Part shown: positions 2,824 to 45,307 of the stretch, piece by piece
How the letters are laid out: every line of letters starts with the position of its first letter
Position numbering within the stretch: position 1 is the stretch's first letter
IMG/VR virus record: IMGVR_UViG_3300045988_068671
Coordinates: 20,518 to 84,517 of that record
Reading direction: 5' to 3' (one strand)
Length of the DNA: 64,000 bases
Source: a virus
Made by a program: the position numbers and the translations under genes
The notes under the pieces: model-generated
Database searches by the model: none
What the model saw: the letters and a program-made list of their open reading frames with translations, nothing else
Told to the model about the DNA's origin: nothing

Positions 2824-4689
2824 TTAAAATATTAATTGTTCATTTTCTCCATCTACCTCTACACTAGAACCTGGCTATAAAGCGTCTATCTTTTTCTACA
2901 ATTCGGCTACGGCCTAGCTAATTAGTTCTTCTACCTCAGCTTTGGTGTAGTATCTCTCTATAAGATATTCGCTCCTAACATATCCAGTATCTTGTAAATC
3001 TTTTTCTCCATAGGTGCAATAATAAGTATCTTCTTCAGTCTTACTATTCTCAACTAGGTCATCATAATCAGCTTGTGGTAAGCATACAAGTTTTGGTACT
3101 TCTTCAGTAATAGCAACTTGCTTGCCTCCAGCAAATAGCCTGTTATCTTCTGTGGTAAGTTTAACAGAACTCTCAATAACTTGCTCAGTTCCTGTTTCCT
3201 CAGAAGGTTCTCCAGTTGTTCCCTATTGTACTTCTTTTTCTCCAATTTTCTAAATAGTAATATCAGAAGTTTCTACTGATGTAGATTTCAAAAGCTCAGT
3301 GCTAAATTCTTTAGCAGCAGCAGCCTAATCATCCTGATATTTTTTCTAGGTAACAAATATGAAATCATCATCTCCGGTTTCAGGAGAGTCTCCCCTTAAA
3401 CTTTCTTTTGTTACGTAATCTTCGGCTATCTAATCTGATAAATCAGATAATGACTATTGAGTAGCATAAGTAGACTGAGCATTTTCCTTAGTAAGAAATT
3501 TGTCATCAACCTGCTAAATAGTATAATAAGCCTTAATATCTTCTGTAGTAACGTAGTTTCCAAGTTTTTGCAAACCTTGAACTATTTCATCAATCTACTT
3601 CTTGGAGTAATAATTTGTAGCAACCCAGGACTGATATTGATTGGTAGTATGATAATTCTAATCCAAATATTCCTTAGTAATATAAACCTTTGCATCATTT
3701 GTGACGTCATATACATAGTAATATGTATCAGGCTCTACCGTCCCTTCCTCTACTAACTTTAGATACTCTTCTTCAGTTAATGTTACTAAGTTCGGAATAT
3801 CCGATTCAGTAGCAATCTAATCTTCACCTATAAATAATCCTTCAGACCTAACGTCTACTACTAACTAGCTCTCTCCCTCTACTACAGGAGATTTTATCTA
3901 TCCAACAGTGATGCTTTCTAAGGAACCATCTCCATCTACCTTTAAAGTCTTATCTAGCTCATCTTGAATAGCCTATTGGTCTTCGTCATACTATTTCTTT
4001 GTAACAAAGACAAAATCATCTCCTTCCATTCCTTCTCCTCTAAGACTTTCTTTGGTAACAAATATGTCATCAGTTTCTTCCTTAGTATAATGGTTAGATA
4101 AGGCTTTAGATAACAAGGACTCTGGGTCCTCTAAATCTAGATCAGTTTTAGGGGCATAATTCTCAGTTAACTCTTCAAGGGTAGCATACTTGGAAAGGTT
4201 AGAGATTGTCTAGTCTAAATCCGTTCTAATCTGTACGACAGTAGTATTTAGAGCTTTCTATTTCAACTATTCCTCTATCTTTTTACCCCATTCTGCTGAT
4301 AAGTAAAACTAATCATCATCTAGGCTGTCTTCATATATATAATAATATGTTTCTGCATGAAGATATGTTTTATCTTCGTCTATAGGTTTAAAATCTTCTG
4401 TGGTATTTTTAGACCATTCCTTATATTCAGCCTCTGTACAGGTGATTATCTAAATAGATTCATAAGAAGCTTTCCAACCTTCTTTGTATTTAATCTTAGA
4501 CTTATCTACTAGCATATAAATATTTCCGTTATCTATATTTGAAACGGTCATGCCTTGATAAGCATATTTCTCCGGAATAGAATATAATTCGTCTAAATTA
4601 TCGACTACTGTTCTATTATCAAGAGGTTTAGGAGTTTCTACGGTTAAAGCAACACCTAATGTAGCATCACCTGTATATTTAAATGCCAT
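2824..4689 (-). CDS. tail-fibre-like repeat protein (about 621 aa) with many in-frame TAG
   Basis: repeated motifs (EEYLKLVEEGTVEPDTYYYVYD / EEVPKLVCLPQADYDDLVE...TYYC); ORF piece 4450-4689 ends at TAG; length divisible by 3. Confidence 0.55.
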
Positions 4690-18638: not shown

Positions 18639-18655
18639 AACTATTAATTTTGGCG

Positions 18656-18727
18656 TTGCCCTACTAGGATTCGAACCCAGACTAAATGATTTAGAGTCAT
18701 CTGTGCTGACCATTACACCATAGGGCA
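18656..18727 (-). tRNA. amber suppressor tRNA, anticodon CUA (reads UAG); resembles the window's tRNA-Gln
   Basis: full cloverleaf: acceptor TGCCCTA/TAGGGCA, anticodon arm GATGA-CTCTAAA-TCATT, T-loop TTCGAAT; D-arm identical to tRNA-Gln at 33540. Confidence 0.8.
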
Positions 18728-20278: not shown

Positions 20279-21071
20279 CACGACTCTCTCGTGTATAAAT
20301 AAGTCAAACGTGCAACTCTAAGGTATTACGAGTATAAATAAAATGCCCATATGAACTCCATCATTGGAACATTGGTCAACGGAGAAATCAACAACAAAAC
20401 AAAAAAAAATCAAAACCGAGTTAACTTTTGTAGTAGTTTTAGTTTTTATGTCTGGCTGATAGGAAAGACTATCATTTCTTTTGAAAATTCAGTTTCACAA
20501 AAGAAAATATGGGCAAGTAAGGAGAAGAATGTTCCACAAACTCAAAGGCAGATTTTCCTACTTTTTCCAGTTTTCAAAAAATCGCCAGTAGGACGAGTTT
20601 TATAACTCATACTACAATGATTATTTACTCTAACATTAGCCTATAAAAAGGCAACAAAAAGCGGGGTTACGCAGATAGCCCAATATCCGAAAATAACTGC
20701 TATTAATGAAAATGAGAGTTCGCAAACTTATCTCATGAGTAAGGAGGATTGAGCTATAAGATTGGTCACTTATAGCAATATATGAAAGTACTGCTGACAT
20801 ACCAGTAGACCATGTATGTCATATTTTTATATGTTATGCAATTGTATTAGAAGTTGCCTGGTATAAGCCGCTAGATTAATAAGGCTAGCTGATAAGAGGA
20901 TACCTCATAAGGGTATATTTCCTACCTCGAACTCAGTCGCAAGAATATGGATTAGCTACCTATATTCTTAGTGAACGTTAGTAACGTAGCTATTTGATTT
21001 TCAGTATAGGAAACTGAGAATTAAGTAGTTGAATAACTCTCTATCTTATACTAGTTGCCAAGATAGAGTTT

Positions 21072-21141
21072 TCCCCATTAGTATAATGCATTGCGCCTTC
21101 CTCTAAAGAAGGAGATTCTGGTTCAAACCTGGAGTGGGGAA
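21072..21141 (+). tRNA. second amber suppressor-like tRNA, anticodon CUA; D-arm atypical
   Basis: perfect anticodon arm CCTTC-CTCTAAA-GAAGG, T-loop TTCAAAC, acceptor TCCCCAT/GTGGGGA. Confidence 0.55.
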
Positions 21142-21284
21142 CTTAGTATTTGAGGACTACAGCTACTTGTAGGCTCTATTTGCTGTTAAGGACTATAATG
21201 GGTACGCCCAGAGACTATGTAATTGTTGTGAAACAATTCAAAGGAGAGTGGCACAGGAAGGTCTTTTGATAGTGTTCATTTTTT

Positions 21285-21310: not shown

Positions 21311-21404
21311 AAAACTCAGCTTAGGAGAGTATAAAATACCATCTGATGAGACTAGGACGAAATATACTTTGTATATAATGGTATAACTAATTAAAACTAA
21401 GAAG

Positions 21405-21956: not shown

Positions 21957-22292
21957 ATGAAAGAGATAAAAATTCTAGAAACAACAAAAGTTCTCTCTGA
22001 TAGAGAGGCTGATTTACTTTGTTCCATATTATGGTCTTTAGGTATTTATCCAGAGATTACAGCACTTGAAAGGAAAAATAGAAACATTACACTGGCGAGT
22101 ATTCTTCCAGAAATGCAACCTAGGACAGCTAGCCGTATTAGAGCTATGTTGGATGATCAAGTTTATATCTCTCTCAACATTTTCATGGAAAACTATTCTT
22201 GGCGTGATTTCATGAAAATGCCTGGTGTTGGAAGGAAATCGCTAAGTGATTTAAGATCAGTTTTGCAAAAGTACGGATACAAAACATTCTAA
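21957..22292 (+). CDS. hypothetical protein (111 aa)
   Basis: ORF track. Confidence 0.5.
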   Translation: MKEIKILETTKVLSDREADLLCSILWSLGIYPEITALERKNRNITLASILPEMQPRTASRIRAMLDDQVYISLNIFMENYSWRDFMKMPGVGRKSLSDLRSVLQKYGYKTF

Positions 22293-22421
22293 CTCGACTT
22301 CGCGAGTATAAATAGGCTTTAGGCGGAGAGCGGTAGGTAGAATAGTCTACCTACGTAGTGTAAAATACTTGCTATTTAGCAAACAAATGTGTAGTATTCT
22401 ATAAATAAAAATTAAATATTT

Positions 22422-36962: not shown

Positions 36963-37036
36963 GTCTGGATGCCTGAGTGGTCTAAGGGAACGGTCTGCAA
37001 AACCGTGTTTCGTGGGTTCGAATCCCACTCCAGATT
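36963..37036 (+). tRNA. tRNA-Cys(GCA)
   Basis: loop CTGCAAA. Confidence 0.8.
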
Positions 37037-37066
37037 CTACACTAATTTATTTGCCTATGGACAGAA

Positions 37067-38818: not shown

Positions 38819-38903
38819 ATCCGTGTGGGTGAATGGTTTAGCCATCAGTCTGCAAAACTGAAAAGAGAAATCTTTAATGAGGGTTCGAATCCCTCCACGG
38901 ATT
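38819..38903 (+). tRNA. unusual tRNA: GCA (Cys) anticodon with a 17-nt class II-type variable arm
   Basis: acceptor ATCCGTG/CACGGAT, TCAGT-CTGCAAA-ACTGA, variable stem AAAGA-GAAA-TCTTT. Confidence 0.6.
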
Positions 38904-38923
38904 CTAATTTTAAATTTAAAAAT

Positions 38924-39559
38924 ATGGCATATATTTATTGCATTACAAATTTAATTAATAGCAAGCGATACGTAGGAAAAACTACTACTTCTATAGAAGA
39001 GCGCTGGAAGGAACATTGTTATGACTTTTAGAAAGAAAGATGCAACAAAAGACCTTTATATGATGCCATGAATAAGTATGGTGTTGAGAACTTTATGATA
39101 GAGGAATTGGAATATGTAGATAGTAACTCTGAATTATCTGAAAGAGAAATCTATTGGATAAAAGAGCTAGGAACTTATGGTTCTAATGGGTACAATGCCT
39201 CTAAAGGAGGAGATGGCACTATTCTATACAATCATAGTGAAATTGTAGAATTAGCTAGATTGGGATATACTAGTTCTTAGATACAAGAAAAAATAGGGTG
39301 CTGTAAAGACACTATTTACAAAGTTTTGAAGGCAAATAATATAAAAATTAGAAAAAGTAACGCAAAGTTAATTGCTTAGTATGACTTAGCAGGTAATTTT
39401 ATACAGGTATTCTTTGGTTCCAGAGAAGCTTAGGAATGGTTAATTAATAACGGAATTACTGACAATAAATCTGCATAGAGTCATATTATAGGATGCTGTA
39501 AGAATAAAACCAAATCATAGTATGGCTACATTTGGAAATATCTTCCAGAGCCTATTTAA
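38924..39559 (+). CDS. GIY-YIG homing endonuclease with about 6 in-frame TAG
   Basis: YIYCITNLINSKRYVGKT ... YNASKGG; ORF pieces 38768-39031 and 39068-39280 are co-frame across TAG. Confidence 0.6.
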
Positions 39560-40629: not shown

Positions 40630-40702
40630 GGGCCGTTAGCTCAAATGGCTAGAGCGCTGGTTTTGCACACCGGAAGATAGGGTTCGAGTCCCTGCGTGTC
40701 CA
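40630..40702 (+). tRNA. tRNA-Ala(TGC)-like with G3:U70 but a partly mismatched acceptor
   Basis: loop TTTGCAC. Confidence 0.45.
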
Positions 40703-42308: not shown

Positions 42309-42591
42309 TAAGACAATCACAACACATCTTACAAATATGAAAGATGGAGATGTAGCTGAGATTGTAAATTGGTTCTGTGACGAGGAAATGGAGCCTGGAA
42401 CTATAGTTCAGAGGTACGGAGATGCTTTAATTATCATTGGTGGGCGTAGCGGTCTATGCTATCCTAAGCTGTTTACTGTTGAGGATACGCGTCGTTTGCT
42501 TACTTGTAAGGTCACAATTTTGCCTCCTGGCTCAACTATAATGCTATAATTTCTTTTCTCCAGTTTTCTAATCAGAGATAAACTGGAACAT

Positions 42592-43154
42592 GGGCCTACT
42601 TGGATTTGACAGGCGATTACGAATTATAAGGACGTGTAGAGCGCAATCTCTTTAAACGAAGAAAACAAATAACTGCAGAAATTGCACCTGTAAGAATGGC
42701 AGCCTAAGCTGCTGACTTATTAATAGACAATATTAATCAAGTCGGGTTAATGGGGAGACCTAGAAACAGAAGAGGTTTGTATCTAAGTGTTATAACGAGA
42801 CCTTCAGGGAAGAATCATAGTACCTACAGGTTACAGTGAAGCTTAGATGCATTAACTTGAAAGCCAAAGGTTAGTAGAGCTGAAATCTCCACTGCCTATC
42901 TATGGGCTACAAATAGACGTTCTCCAACGTAAATGGAGTGGTGGAAGAATGACTTCTAGTCAGCCCCCAGTTTGGTAGTTTGTAAATTAGTTAGTAGGAG
43001 GACTGCTGGTTCACCTCTACTGTAAAGAATCCAGCTCTTCTAATAAAACTATCTAAATGCTAGAACTCACTAGCTGATGTAATAAAAATGAGACGCACGT
43101 TATCCTTGTAATAAGGGTTGTTTGGACACGGGTTCGACTCCCGTTAGGTCCACA
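42592..43154 (+). ncRNA. ssrA: tmRNA (ssrA-like); tag reading frame 42675-42707 (AEIAPVRMAA-stop)
   Basis: 5' GGGCCUACUUGGAUUUGACAGGCG and 3' GGACACGGGUUCGACUCCCGUUAGGUCCA closely match E. coli tmRNA termini; G3:U70. Confidence 0.7.
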
Positions 43155-43178
43155 TGACAGGGCTATAGTTCAACCGAT

Positions 43179-43250
43179 TGGGATGTAGTTTAACGGTTAG
43201 AACAAGAAACTGATAATTTCTAGACGGCAGTTCAACTCTGCCCTTCCCAA
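43179..43250 (+). tRNA. tRNA-Ile(GAT)
   Basis: loop CTGATAA. Confidence 0.8.
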
Positions 43251-43340
43251 CTAACACTGTAAATAATATGTAGAAAATTTCTGAACAAATCAAACAACAA
43301 GTAAAAATCCTCAGAGAAATATGGTACTGGGATTAAATAT

Positions 43341-43380
43341 CGAGGCTGTGGTGTAATGGCTTGCATATCACACTGTCATT
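43341..43380 (+). other. 5' half of an interrupted tRNA-Asp (acceptor, D-arm, anticodon stem and loop CTGTCA)
   Basis: pairs with the 3' half at 44036-44074. Confidence 0.5.
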
Positions 43381-43400
43381 AAAATTAATTAAACTTATCT

Positions 43401-43952
43401 GTGAATCGAGAACAATCTCTTAAATTGTATTATGAGAATCCTAACCACTGTAAGGAATGTGGTAAGGTAATCGAAGTACTAGATAATCAGAGGGTCGCAG
43501 ATGTGAGGAAGAAACAGTTTTGTAGTCATTCGTGTGCTGCTTCTTACAATAATAGAGGTAGGATAAAGCACGATGAAAACAAGATATGTCCTAGATGTGG
43601 TAAACCTAAGCATAAAGATTCAGAAATGTGTCGTAGTTGCTGGGAAGAACTTAATGGAATTGGTAACAAAACATTAGGTTATTATACATCTGGGCAGAAG
43701 TACTTATCATCTAAATGTCAAGAAATAAGGACTAATGCTCGTAGAGTATTAGAAAGTTCCGAACGTGAGAAAGTATGTCAATATTGTCATAATCATGAAT
43801 TTGATGCAATACTTGAAGTACATCATCTTAAAGGAATATTAGAATTTGACGAAGACACTCTTATTAAGGAGATTAACAACGAGAATAATTTAGTATGGTT
43901 ATGTCCGAATCACCATATTATGTTAGAGAAGGGTTTAATTAGTCTGGAGTAA
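43401..43952 (+). CDS. HNH homing endonuclease
   Basis: HHLKG...NLVWLCPNHH. Confidence 0.7.
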   Translation: MNREQSLKLYYENPNHCKECGKVIEVLDNQRVADVRKKQFCSHSCAASYNNRGRIKHDENKICPRCGKPKHKDSEMCRSCWEELNGIGNKTLGYYTSGQKYLSSKCQEIRTNARRVLESSEREKVCQYCHNHEFDAILEVHHLKGILEFDEDTLIKEINNENNLVWLCPNHHIMLEKGLISLE

Positions 43953-43963
43953 TCCAGTTACAC

Positions 43964-44035
43964 CGAGGGTTAGTTCAGTGGTAGAATAGTGCACTGTCTA
44001 TGCGAAGGTCACCAGTTCGAGTCTGGTACTCTCGG
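43964..44035 (+). tRNA. tRNA-Asp(GTC), intact copy
   Basis: loop CTGTCTA. Confidence 0.75.
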
Positions 44036-44074
44036 CACTGTGAAGGTTGGGGTTCGAATCCCCCAGCCTCGGCA
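44036..44074 (+). other. 3' half of the interrupted tRNA-Asp
   Basis: TGTGA-AGGT-TGGGG TTCGAAT CCCCC-AGCCTCG-G. Confidence 0.5.
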
Positions 44075-44079
44075 TTTAT

Positions 44080-44152
44080 TCCCCTGTAGTTTAGTTGGTT
44101 AGAACACGTGATTTGTAATCTCGAGACCTCGGTTCGAATCCGAGTGGGGGAT
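44080..44152 (+). tRNA. tRNA-Thr(TGT)
   Basis: loop TTTGTAA. Confidence 0.75.
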
Positions 44153-44179
44153 CTTAACCATTAAATTAGATTAATTTTT

Positions 44180-44854
44180 ATGACTAGATTAGAAAAGTAT
44201 TTAGTAGCAACTGCTACTGAGATTATCGAAGCGGAAACAACTGTTTCTCGCTACTTTGTCATTGGAAACGTCAAAGTTAGAGTATCAGACCATTTAAGTA
44301 AAATGAGTGATGCAGACTTACAAGTGATTATTCCATTGAACGGAGGGACTAAGTATATAGTTACTGTTAAGGATAGTCCTGGAAAATTTCTTGTATGGAA
44401 TGCAACTCAAATAAAAGACTTTATTCCTTCATTGCAGATTATTAAGGGCTTGAAGGAAGGAGTGCAACTTAAGCCAAAACCTAAAGACTCTGCAGTTCAG
44501 AAGATTCAGCTAGCATTAAATAATAGTAATACCGATGGAGGTTCGTTAACGTTTGATGGTACTATTATTGAGTCTAGATTGAAAGAAAAGCAACTTACTT
44601 CCAAACAGCGGGAAGTTTTCAGGAGAACTAAATCTACTTGGGATATTTCTCAGATTGGGACATTACCCAGTATGATTAAAGTAGATTTAGGATTGTCAAA
44701 TGGTTCTGTAAACGAAGATGTGCAGATATTTCTAACTTGTACATCTTTAACCTACAAAGAAATTCTGAACATTTATAAAATAATAGTTGTTGATAACCGT
44801 ATGGTTCCAACTATTAAACTGTTGCAAGAAGCTTATAGCTTGATTGTGCAGTAG
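44180..44854 (+). CDS. hypothetical protein (224 aa); ends in TAG, which acts here as a stop just before a tRNA
   Basis: ORF track. Confidence 0.5.
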   Translation: MTRLEKYLVATATEIIEAETTVSRYFVIGNVKVRVSDHLSKMSDADLQVIIPLNGGTKYIVTVKDSPGKFLVWNATQIKDFIPSLQIIKGLKEGVQLKPKPKDSAVQKIQLALNNSNTDGGSLTFDGTIIESRLKEKQLTSKQREVFRRTKSTWDISQIGTLPSMIKVDLGLSNGSVNEDVQIFLTCTSLTYKEILNIYKIIVVDNRMVPTIKLLQEAYSLIVQ

Positions 44855-44857
44855 GAT

Positions 44858-44929
44858 AGCGCCATCATCTAATGGTTAGGATTCAGGCTTTTCACGCCTG
44901 CCATACGGGTTCGAATCCCGTTGGCGTTA
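44858..44929 (+). tRNA. tRNA-Glu(TTC)
   Basis: loop TTTTCAC. Confidence 0.85.
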
Positions 44930-44935
44930 CTATGT

Positions 44936-44968
44936 ACCCCAGCAGCGAAAGTTGTTGGGGTATTTTTT
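44936..44968 (+). terminator. ACCCCAGCA...TTGTTGGGGT plus T6
   Basis: seen in sequence. Confidence 0.5.
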
Positions 44969-45307
44969 GTTTAATTTAATTTGTGTTTAATGCGAAAAAC
45001 ATTTGAATTTGTAAAAGTGGGAGGAGTCTGGTTTTATTGGTGGCCAGACTTCGATGGAGACCCAGGAGAGTTGGCTATGGTTGGCGGGGGCTGACGATCT
45101 TCTTGATTCTCTTGATGATAGATTTGTTAGGTTGCAGATGGTTGACCCTTCTGTAGCTAAGATTGTTCTATCTAAGATTGAAGAAGATGAGAATGGAGCT
45201 ACTTACTTGTGTAAAAGTAAGAATTATAACGATAGAGTTTGGATTTGTCCAGTAACTCTACTAGTATTTAACGAATATCCTCAAAACATTTATTTGTCTG
45301 AATTATA

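Follow-up and report, generated by a model that had tools for sequence, protein, structure and literature searches.

An HNH endonuclease gene and a spare tRNA-Asp gene inserted in a phage tRNA-Asp gene: a probable homing cassette that carries a replacement tRNA

Why is a tRNA-Asp gene in the tRNA array of a gut phage cut in two by an HNH endonuclease gene, with a second, complete tRNA-Asp gene between the pieces? The arrangement was found in a stretch of 64,000 nucleotides (nt), positions 20,518 to 84,517 of the IMG/VR virus record IMGVR_UViG_3300045988_068671. This whole stretch is called the window, and positions refer to it unless a related contig (L numbers) is named. The broken resident gene is called Asp1, and the complete tRNA-Asp(GUC) gene inside the insert is called Asp2. 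The phage is large, uncultured and from the human gut, with related contigs of 95-192 kilobases (kb), and the locus is part of an array in which at least 27 tRNA genes run in the same direction. Asp2 is the sole intact tRNA-Asp gene in the window. An earlier reading made from the letters alone (the sequence-only reading) offered two explanations, a homing-endonuclease cassette that brought a replacement tRNA into the anticodon loop, or an intron-like element at position 37/38. It also proposed a search for group I intron core elements and a comparison with related phages that lack the insertion. The evidence favours the first explanation. With a probability of about 0.8, the insert is a homing cassette of two genes, which disrupts the resident tRNA-Asp gene and brings Asp2 as the replacement, and this replacement is probably resistant to cutting.

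All parts of the locus lie on the plus strand. The 5' half of Asp1 (43341-43378, CGAGGCTGTGGTGTAATGGCTTGCATATCACACTGTCA) comprises tRNA positions 1-37, and the 3' half (44038-44072, CTGTGAAGG...CCCCCAGCCTCGG) comprises positions 38-73. The start at 43341 had been placed correctly; whereas the end of Asp1, put at 44074, had to be corrected, as the discriminator G73 is at 44072 and the insert occupies 43379-44037. The joined halves form a tRNA-Asp(gtc) of 74 nt, called by ARAGORN at default thresholds, in agreement with the claim that they reconstitute a tRNA-Asp(GUC). The D stem of the joined Asp1 is weak, with 3 base pairs (bp), and the T stem has 4 bp.

The insert in the anticodon loop of Asp1 is a cassette of 659 bp (43379-44037), which is missing from empty alleles and recurs at identical junctions elsewhere. 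It starts with an A/T-rich leader of 22 nt (43379-43400, TTAAAATTAATTAAACTTATCT), the first ~15 nt of which are conserved in the diverged cassettes of L069, L071 and L073. The leader is followed by the HNH endonuclease gene (43401-43952; 552 nt, GTG start, TAA stop, 183 amino acids), by a spacer of 11 nt between the HNH stop codon and Asp2 that is also the 5' leader of Asp2 (43953-43963, TCCAGTTACAC), and by Asp2 itself (43964-44035, 72 nt). The open reading frame (ORF), the Rfam tRNA model and ARAGORN all support the nuclease gene and the complete second tRNA-Asp at the places first described. The ORF and Asp2 fill 624 of the 659 nt and leave 35 nt; the insert of L069 has the same content in only ~490 nt. 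The cassette ends with the dinucleotide CA (44036-44037, read from the sequence), and the same CA ends the 5' half of Asp1. Depending on how this CA is assigned, the insert lies at 43379-44037 (the 37/38 site) or at 43377-44035 (the 35/36 site), and because it is common to both junctions the insertion point cannot be placed more finely than 35/36 to 37/38. A direct repeat of 7 bp, CTGTGAA, had been pointed out at 43399 and 44038. The repeat is present; however, it carries no evident meaning, as 8.8 copies of the heptamer are expected in the window and 8 are present. Its interpretation as a target-site duplication was rejected, because of this chance frequency and because it is absent from the same cassette of L071, L069 and L073.

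The gene exists both with and without the insert in related phages. An exact search of IMG/VR with 31 nt of the Asp1 5' half retrieved 34 contigs. The 5' half runs into the same insert at the same junctions in 24 of them; in the other 10 it runs directly into the 3' half to form an ordinary tRNA-Asp gene, followed by the next gene. The uninterrupted gene reads ...CACACTGTCA directly continued by CTGTGAAGGTTGGGG..., which is the sequence of the joined halves. Nine contigs (L003, L004, L009, L011, L012, L014, L020, L023 and L031) have the identical uninterrupted Asp1, and L027 has a diverged one. Since related contigs carry the joined sequence as one uninterrupted gene, the match of the joined halves to a tRNA is not a chance resemblance. 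The claim of a tRNA-Asp gene split by an HNH cassette with its own tRNA-Asp is therefore confirmed, by the sequence as described and by the uninterrupted Asp1 of the relatives, and the proposed comparison with insertion-free phages revealed a polymorphism at one and the same site. For example, the occupied L042 and the empty L003 have identical flanks on both sides, and the insert is their only difference. None of the nine close empty contigs was among the matches in the Asp2 scans or in the nuclease scan, which indicates that the nuclease and Asp2 come and go together. The insert is also carried by GenBank MT836666 (stool, Mexico), which is unrelated upstream and identical from the exact first base of the tRNA, and the cassette is found at the same junctions in Logan/ENA assemblies.

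Sliding identity profiles were calculated between the window and nine other occupied genomes. The cassettes of L042, L047, L049 and L057 are 100% identical to that of the window, with flanks that are 50-85% identical; the flanks of L049 can barely be aligned with the window despite the identical cassette. The extent of the identical tract is variable. It stops near 44000, close to the cassette, in L042, and continues to ~45000 in L047, L057 and L046, where it extends by about 1 kb on the downstream side and takes in tRNA-Thr and the gene after it. The cassette thus moves as a unit between diverged phage genomes. An identical cassette in diverged backbones, with tracts of variable length, is the signature of homing, in which a break is repaired with variable co-conversion of the flanks.

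More diverged cassettes were also found. In the lineage of L062, the nuclease has 89% amino acid identity and a synonymous divergence (dS) of 0.92, and the Asp1 5' half is identical to that of the window; this indicates that diverged cassettes entered the same Asp1 allele independently. The nucleases of L071, L069 and L073 share 81%, 72% and 60% amino acid identity, respectively, with the junctions unchanged (CTGTCA continued by TTAAAA..., and ...CTCGGCA continued by C). Each of these cassettes is inside its own diverged Asp1, with the anticodon stems CCTCC/GGAGG (L071), CCACA/TGTGG (L069) and TCACA/TGTGA (L073). From this distribution, the cassette appears to be old and widespread. The behaviour of the element is that of a homing gene, with presence/absence polymorphism at one site, higher similarity in the element than in its flanks, and degenerate copies.

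A further possible target was seen in L072 (2440-3180), where two tRNA halves with the acceptor strands GGTGTAT/ATGCACC and an unreadable anticodon enclose a cassette with an intact Asp2 and a nuclease that is 65% identical. ARAGORN forces the joined halves into a tRNA-Lys(ttt) with a poor stem, and the 5' half gave no match in the exact IMG/VR search. The target is either a decayed Asp target or evidence of the cassette entering another tRNA.

The best surviving alternative is a single illegitimate recombination, after which the insert was spread by descent and general recombination. In this view the HNH protein would not target Asp1 and would serve some other function, if any. Cleavage of the target by the HNH protein is indeed an inferred property, phage HNH proteins have several roles, and tRNA arrays are prone to recombination, as is seen from the mosaic profiles of identity and from the fusion through the T arm in L049. 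However, general recombination does not readily provide a 100% identical cassette in flanks of 50-85% identity with sharp borders at or near the cassette, nor two cassette lineages (dS = 0.9) in an identical Asp1 allele, nor the same junction in at least four diverged Asp1 backgrounds. Moreover, the nuclease is under strong purifying selection, and its relatives repeatedly adjoin tRNA-Asp genes. This alternative is regarded as improbable.

Members of the HNH superfamily share a beta-beta-alpha-metal motif, in which a conserved His acts as the general base and Asn/His bind the metal; zinc-binding CxxC pairs often flank the motif. The cassette protein consists of an N-terminal FCS/MYM-like zinc finger, a central zinc ribbon and a C-terminal HNH domain; the zinc finger and the zinc ribbon are presumably for DNA binding. 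Residues 126-182 match Pfam HNH_2 with 22.0 bits against a cut-off of 21. Among the aligned homologs, all 17 match HNH_2 and 15 of the 17 match HNH, with the invariant residues C126, C129, H141, H142, N159, N163, C168, N170 and H172; both CxxC/CxxH pairs, the HH pair and the last His are thus conserved throughout. In all, 175 homologous proteins were found at E < 1e-5. The AlphaFold model (pLDDT confidence score 87) has a beta-beta-alpha arrangement at 139-176, and the closest folds are the Gme HNH nicking endonuclease 4h9d (probability 0.97) and the phage T5 SciA 9qgx, both with weak E-values of 0.06-0.07. Sequence searches of the PDB with the protein and with a profile returned zinc-finger noise and a weak match to the LtrA endonuclease domain. 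By the Pfam match, the invariant motif residues and the fold, the protein belongs to the HNH endonuclease superfamily. The ratio of nonsynonymous to synonymous substitution (dN/dS) is 0.03-0.06 against close relatives, which is purifying selection. The HNH gene has no in-frame TAG codon. In L071 (3020-3080) and L072 (3030-3090), the HNH frame runs without a stop into the first bases of Asp2, and the two genes overlap.

Asp2 scores 53.4 bits with the Rfam tRNA model (gathering score 29), and ARAGORN also calls it tRNA-Asp(gtc). It has the discriminator G73, and the CCA end is not encoded. The 13 distinct variants of Asp2 have compensatory double changes in 5 pairs, a number that was reached in 0 of 500 shuffles. 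In the set of variants 94.9% of the cells are paired, including all cells of the acceptor, D and T stems. The divergence of Asp2 is merely 2-6 of 72 nt while the synonymous sites of the nuclease gene are saturated, and the gene is intact at every related locus examined, all degraded ones included. This pattern of substitution indicates a constrained tRNA under purifying selection; the use of Asp2 in translation and its charging are putative. Asp1 and Asp2 are identical at 47 of 74 positions (64%), and no common run is longer than 7 nt, which would prevent recombination between them. The differences between the two include positions 37, 38 and 41 and the 5' strand of the stem; the loop is CUGUCUA in Asp2 and CUGUCAC in Asp1.

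The fate of the Asp1 halves and of the nuclease gene was compared among the occupied genomes. The 5' half was overwritten in L040, together with most of the HNH gene, by a GIY-YIG endonuclease gene, and was removed by a larger deletion in L041/L067 and in L064. Everything upstream of the Asp2 leader is gone in L091, including the 5' half and the HNH gene; the 11-nt spacer is retained where the HNH gene was deleted (L091 and L040). The 3' half is damaged in other ways. In L049 the common GGTTCGAATCC joins it to the T arm of the tRNA that follows, so that the acceptor strand is gone; the T loop is missing in L063, one nucleotide is missing in L062, and L092 has a G-to-A change in the acceptor. 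The nuclease gene is frameshifted by a 10-nt deletion in L068, truncated in L041, L064 and L040, and reduced to a remnant of ~110 nt in L080. In L079, a close relative of L080, the nuclease is gone and just 9 nt of the 5' half are left with Asp2. The joined halves failed tRNA scoring in 4 of 11 variant types (L063, L049, L071 and L080). Since genomes with a lost or damaged 5' half, 3' half or nuclease all keep Asp2, neither half of Asp1 is needed. The halves are relics, and the different states make up the cycle of a homing endonuclease gene, which invades, becomes fixed and decays; the end product is the replacement of one tRNA-Asp allele by another.

The explanation of a homing cassette with a replacement tRNA is thus supported by the empty and occupied alleles, the identical cassette in diverged backbones, the compensatory changes in Asp2 and the deletions that spare Asp2. 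A possible mechanism is as follows. The intact Asp1 of a co-infecting phage that lacks the cassette would be cut or nicked by the nuclease, in or close to the anticodon loop. Repair would use the cassette-bearing genome as the template, with both Asp1 halves and adjacent tRNA genes as homology arms, and would thereby copy the cassette in. The occupied allele would be immune, its target being split; Asp2 would also be immune, as it differs from Asp1 exactly at the insertion site and has a different stem. RNA splicing would play no part, and Asp2 would take over the function of the broken Asp1. Once Asp1 is broken, the genome would depend on Asp2, and for this reason the cassette tRNA would stay after the nuclease has decayed.

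Homologs of the nuclease with 53-71% amino acid identity directly adjoin tRNA-Asp genes in other phage tRNA arrays (L070, L082, L085 and L089), and the tRNA-Asp of L082 has the loop CUGUCUA, as in Asp2. The cassette probably arose from such a free-standing nuclease adjoining a tRNA-Asp gene. An Asp2-type gene stands alone in L078, which may represent either the ancestral state or the end state. The near-solitary Asp2 of L079 was considered as a native source of Asp2 and was rejected, as it proved to be a decayed cassette. The CUGUCUA-loop tRNA-Asp of L082 (1855-1927) has different stems and is located upstream of an HNH homolog of 55% identity (2001-2726); the contigs of this type are 243-375 kb. 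In L089 (2001-2619) the 3' end of the homolog overlaps an Asp1-like tRNA at its 5' end; the score of this tRNA is just 33.8 bits.

Several observations weigh against the homing cassette. Both halves of Asp1 are still intact and mutually complementary in most genomes and across lineages (TCACA/TGTGA, CCACA/TGTGG and CCTCC/GGAGG), and selection for a tRNA that can be re-joined would give the same pattern; the intact complementary halves are here attributed to recent and repeated homing into intact alleles. Cutting of the intact Asp1 by the HNH protein is inferred only from the position of the gene and the population pattern. The usual bacterial tRNA-Asp has the loop CUGUCAC, with a purine at position 37. 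Asp2 is atypical, as all 13 variants have the loop CUGUCUA (U37 and A38) and positions 27 and 43 are never paired. The tRNA-Asp beside the homologs in L070 and L085 has the ordinary CUGUCAC loop, and therefore immunity through a loop change is not a general rule. It is a guess that the nuclease and its tRNA were first captured by Asp1 through illegitimate joining at a microhomology, the CA. The remaining points concern the boundaries of the insert. If the CA is shifted, so that the site is 35/36, the insert is preceded by U and its last base is G, which is the rule for group I introns, and self-splicing group I introns are known exactly at 35/36 in the anticodon loops of tRNA-Asp(GUC), and also of tRNA-Asn, in Patescibacteria (PMC13011429; for a bacterial review, see PMC3984707).

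These boundaries, together with the intact and complementary halves, are what would be expected of a self-splicing group I-like intron at 35/36 or 37/38, with Asp1 restored in the transcript and the nuclease encoded by the intron. The likeness to the known introns includes the site in the anticodon loop of tRNA-Asp(GUC), formally, with the shifted CA, the U before and the G at the end, and the homing endonuclease genes that some of the introns carry. Unlike them, however, the cassette has no ribozyme core, no P1 and no match to an intron model, its 3' end is a tRNA, and its ‘exons’ are dispensable. The search for a group I core, carried out as permissive Rfam scans, gave no match to the group I (RF00028) or group II models at E <= 10 in 43330-44085 or in 42500-45000, and no intron match at the gathering score was found in the 33 kb from 18 to 51 kb. 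The ORF (552 nt) and Asp2 (72 nt) leave 35 nt, too few for a ribozyme; nothing in the initial 60 nt of the insert could pair with the exon end CUGU as a P1 guide; and the last 72 nt fold as a tRNA, where covariation supports the cloverleaf and not P7/P9. Moreover, genomes without the 5' exon (L040, L041, L064 and L091) or without the 3' acceptor strand (L049) persist and keep Asp2, and the intron mode of ARAGORN failed to join the Asp1 halves. The intron-like element at 37/38 that had been suggested is thus largely refuted, and an intron of this kind is considered very unlikely.

Still less likely is a split tRNA, whose 3' half would be set free when RNase P and RNase Z release Asp2, and whose halves would be ligated by an RNA ligase or held together by pairing in trans. 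In its favour, Asp2 borders directly on the 3' half of Asp1, which would be freed by the processing of Asp2, and the halves remain complementary in several lineages. However, as position 37 is followed by no processing site, the 5' half would remain attached to the nuclease mRNA of 552 nt. The sequence after the 5' half (TTAAAATTAATTAAACTTATCT; 22 nt, A/T only) is not complementary to the G/C-rich acceptor strand of Asp2 (GGTACTCTCGGCA), and on inspection no helix of the archaeal type (Nanoarchaeum) can be formed between extensions of the halves. Many genomes have also lost or damaged one half, and the joined halves of 4 of the 11 variants fail as a tRNA. An assembly artefact or chimera is the least credible alternative. 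The sequences are metagenome assemblies, and repeated tRNA-like sequences can mislead assemblers; however, the same structure is found base for base in dozens of independent assemblies of different studies and pipelines (MT836666, IMG/VR projects, Logan SRA and GTDB contigs of metagenome-assembled genomes (MAGs)), and lineage-specific variants exist.

Homing endonuclease genes are known to spare their carrier in two ways, by location between genes or within a self-splicing intron or intein. The homing cassette would represent a third way: it inserts into the gene, breaks it and brings a spare. No account of a phage homing endonuclease combined with a tRNA gene that is split or interrupted in this manner was found in the open-access literature, to which the search was limited. 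The closest known system is SegB of phage T4. This homing endonuclease is encoded in the tRNA cluster, recognises a motif of tRNA genes and promotes the preferential inheritance of itself and of the tRNA genes beside it (PMC2330249). Linkage to tRNA genes is widespread among the homologs of SegB, which can bring about the amplification of a tRNA gene directed against a defence system (PMC13096335). As with SegB, a free-standing GIY-YIG enzyme, the nuclease gene of the cassette is within a phage tRNA array, has its presumed target in a tRNA gene and would be inherited preferentially, together with tRNA genes. SegB differs in its GIY-YIG family, in the recognition of the T-psi-C motif and in its location between genes, where it leaves no split gene; whereas the tRNAs carried with SegB are homologous alleles, the cassette tRNA is a spare for the gene broken by the insertion.

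Other HNH enzymes of phages include nickases such as I-HmuI and the T5 enzymes. MobE of T4 is a free-standing HNH endonuclease with intronless homing (PMC2790892). The cassette shares with MobE-type enzymes the HNH domain and, as deduced for the cassette, a break or nick that is repaired with co-conversion, and a resistant carrier allele. MobE-type genes are found in intergenic DNA or introns, and their resistant allele is an ordinary homolog of the target; in contrast, the cassette lies within its presumed target, and the probably resistant copy is a second gene inside the cassette, only 64% identical. Genes in pieces are also known, such as nrdA of Aeromonas phage Aeh1, which is split by mobE, and gene 39/60 of T4. 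The nrdA/mobE case is similar in that an endonuclease gene has been inserted in a functional gene without an intron or intein and has left two pieces. The protein pieces of the nrdA type reassemble and still work; whereas the RNA halves of Asp1 show no visible rejoining and decay, and the spare gene takes over. Integrative elements also insert in tRNA genes, by use of an integrase, and carry a copy of the displaced 3' segment. The cassette resembles them as a mobile element that targets a tRNA gene and brings sequence preserving the tRNA function; however, it has no integrase or att-type repeat, and it supplies a whole different tRNA gene.

The homing cassette would also be a concrete and datable mechanism for the turnover of tRNA genes in phage tRNA arrays. 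The stages are all visible in natural genomes, namely the intact target, the fresh insertion, the decaying halves, the decaying nuclease and the new tRNA alone. The putatively nuclease-sensitive and nuclease-resistant tRNA genes form a natural pair that can be tested. Asp2 is all that standard tRNA finders report; the split gene is overlooked, and therefore annotation hides the insertion event and its relics.

A wider interpretation is that the cassette, beyond being a parasite that is tolerated, is a self-spreading, addiction-like module of tRNA replacement, which breaks Asp1 and so makes the genome dependent on Asp2, and whose nuclease spreads an anti-defence tRNA allele among gut phages. 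In this case the invariant loop CUGUCUA may have a dual purpose, namely immunity to the own nuclease and resistance to host anticodon-loop nucleases directed at ordinary tRNA-Asp, and ‘nuclease plus spare copy’ would be a general third entry to essential genes, beside introns and inteins. This interpretation is tentative, with the odds clearly against it.

The L091 contig (DXLM01000001.1, 186,052 bp), which has the decayed cassette, was deposited as contig 1 of a ‘Bacteroides sp.’ MAG; the contig is probably a phage genome binned with the host, or as the host, and hints at a possible Bacteroides host. One copy of the cassette has a promoter of the Bacteroidota type. Megablast matched only two records, both unannotated, and the PHROGs matches of neighbouring proteins gave no useful information; in tblastn, a neighbouring protein of 671 amino acids matched many unrelated large phages with ~44% identity. 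The general features of the phage resemble those of zeta crAss-like phages (PMC12386605). An extra segment of ~130 nt (AAGGCTTCTGGATGGATAAGG...), which is not in the window, is found between the Asp1 3' half and tRNA-Thr in L064 (3545-3680) and L091 (~4375-4440).

Other features of the window include a transfer-messenger RNA (tmRNA) gene just upstream of tRNA-Ile (42592-43155, plus strand), which matches Rfam RF00023 with 68.8 bits (gathering score 47), has long insertions and is unreported by ARAGORN; the gene is deleted in L041/L067. A tRNA-like gene with the loop TTTGCAC (Ala, UGC) at 40630-40702 (plus strand) scores 39.5 bits with Rfam and is missed by ARAGORN. Two tRNAs, tRNA-Cys (36963-37037 and 38819-38904) and tRNA-Tyr (27082-27166 and 27778-27862), are present twice. 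A GIY-YIG endonuclease gene (38921-39370, plus strand) immediately follows the second tRNA-Cys, and the two may be another unit of nuclease plus tRNA; a T-arm scan, the sole search made, revealed no relic tRNA halves near them. The GIY-YIG gene has in-frame TAG codons at 39029-39031 and 39278-39280, and its homolog in L040 likewise has two in-frame TAG codons. Two tRNAs with the anticodon CTA, which are amber suppressors labelled Pyl by ARAGORN, are encoded at 18655-18727 (minus strand) and 21072-21142 (plus strand). These tRNAs and the in-frame TAG codons of the GIY-YIG gene suggest that TAG is probably read as an amino acid in this phage. Three further RNAs on the plus strand score above their gathering thresholds, namely RAGATH-14 (20849-21042, 183 bits), the RAGATH-1 hammerhead ribozyme (21313-21382, 68 bits) and a Pistol ribozyme (22292-22360, 63 bits), and they cluster around one of the suppressor tRNAs.

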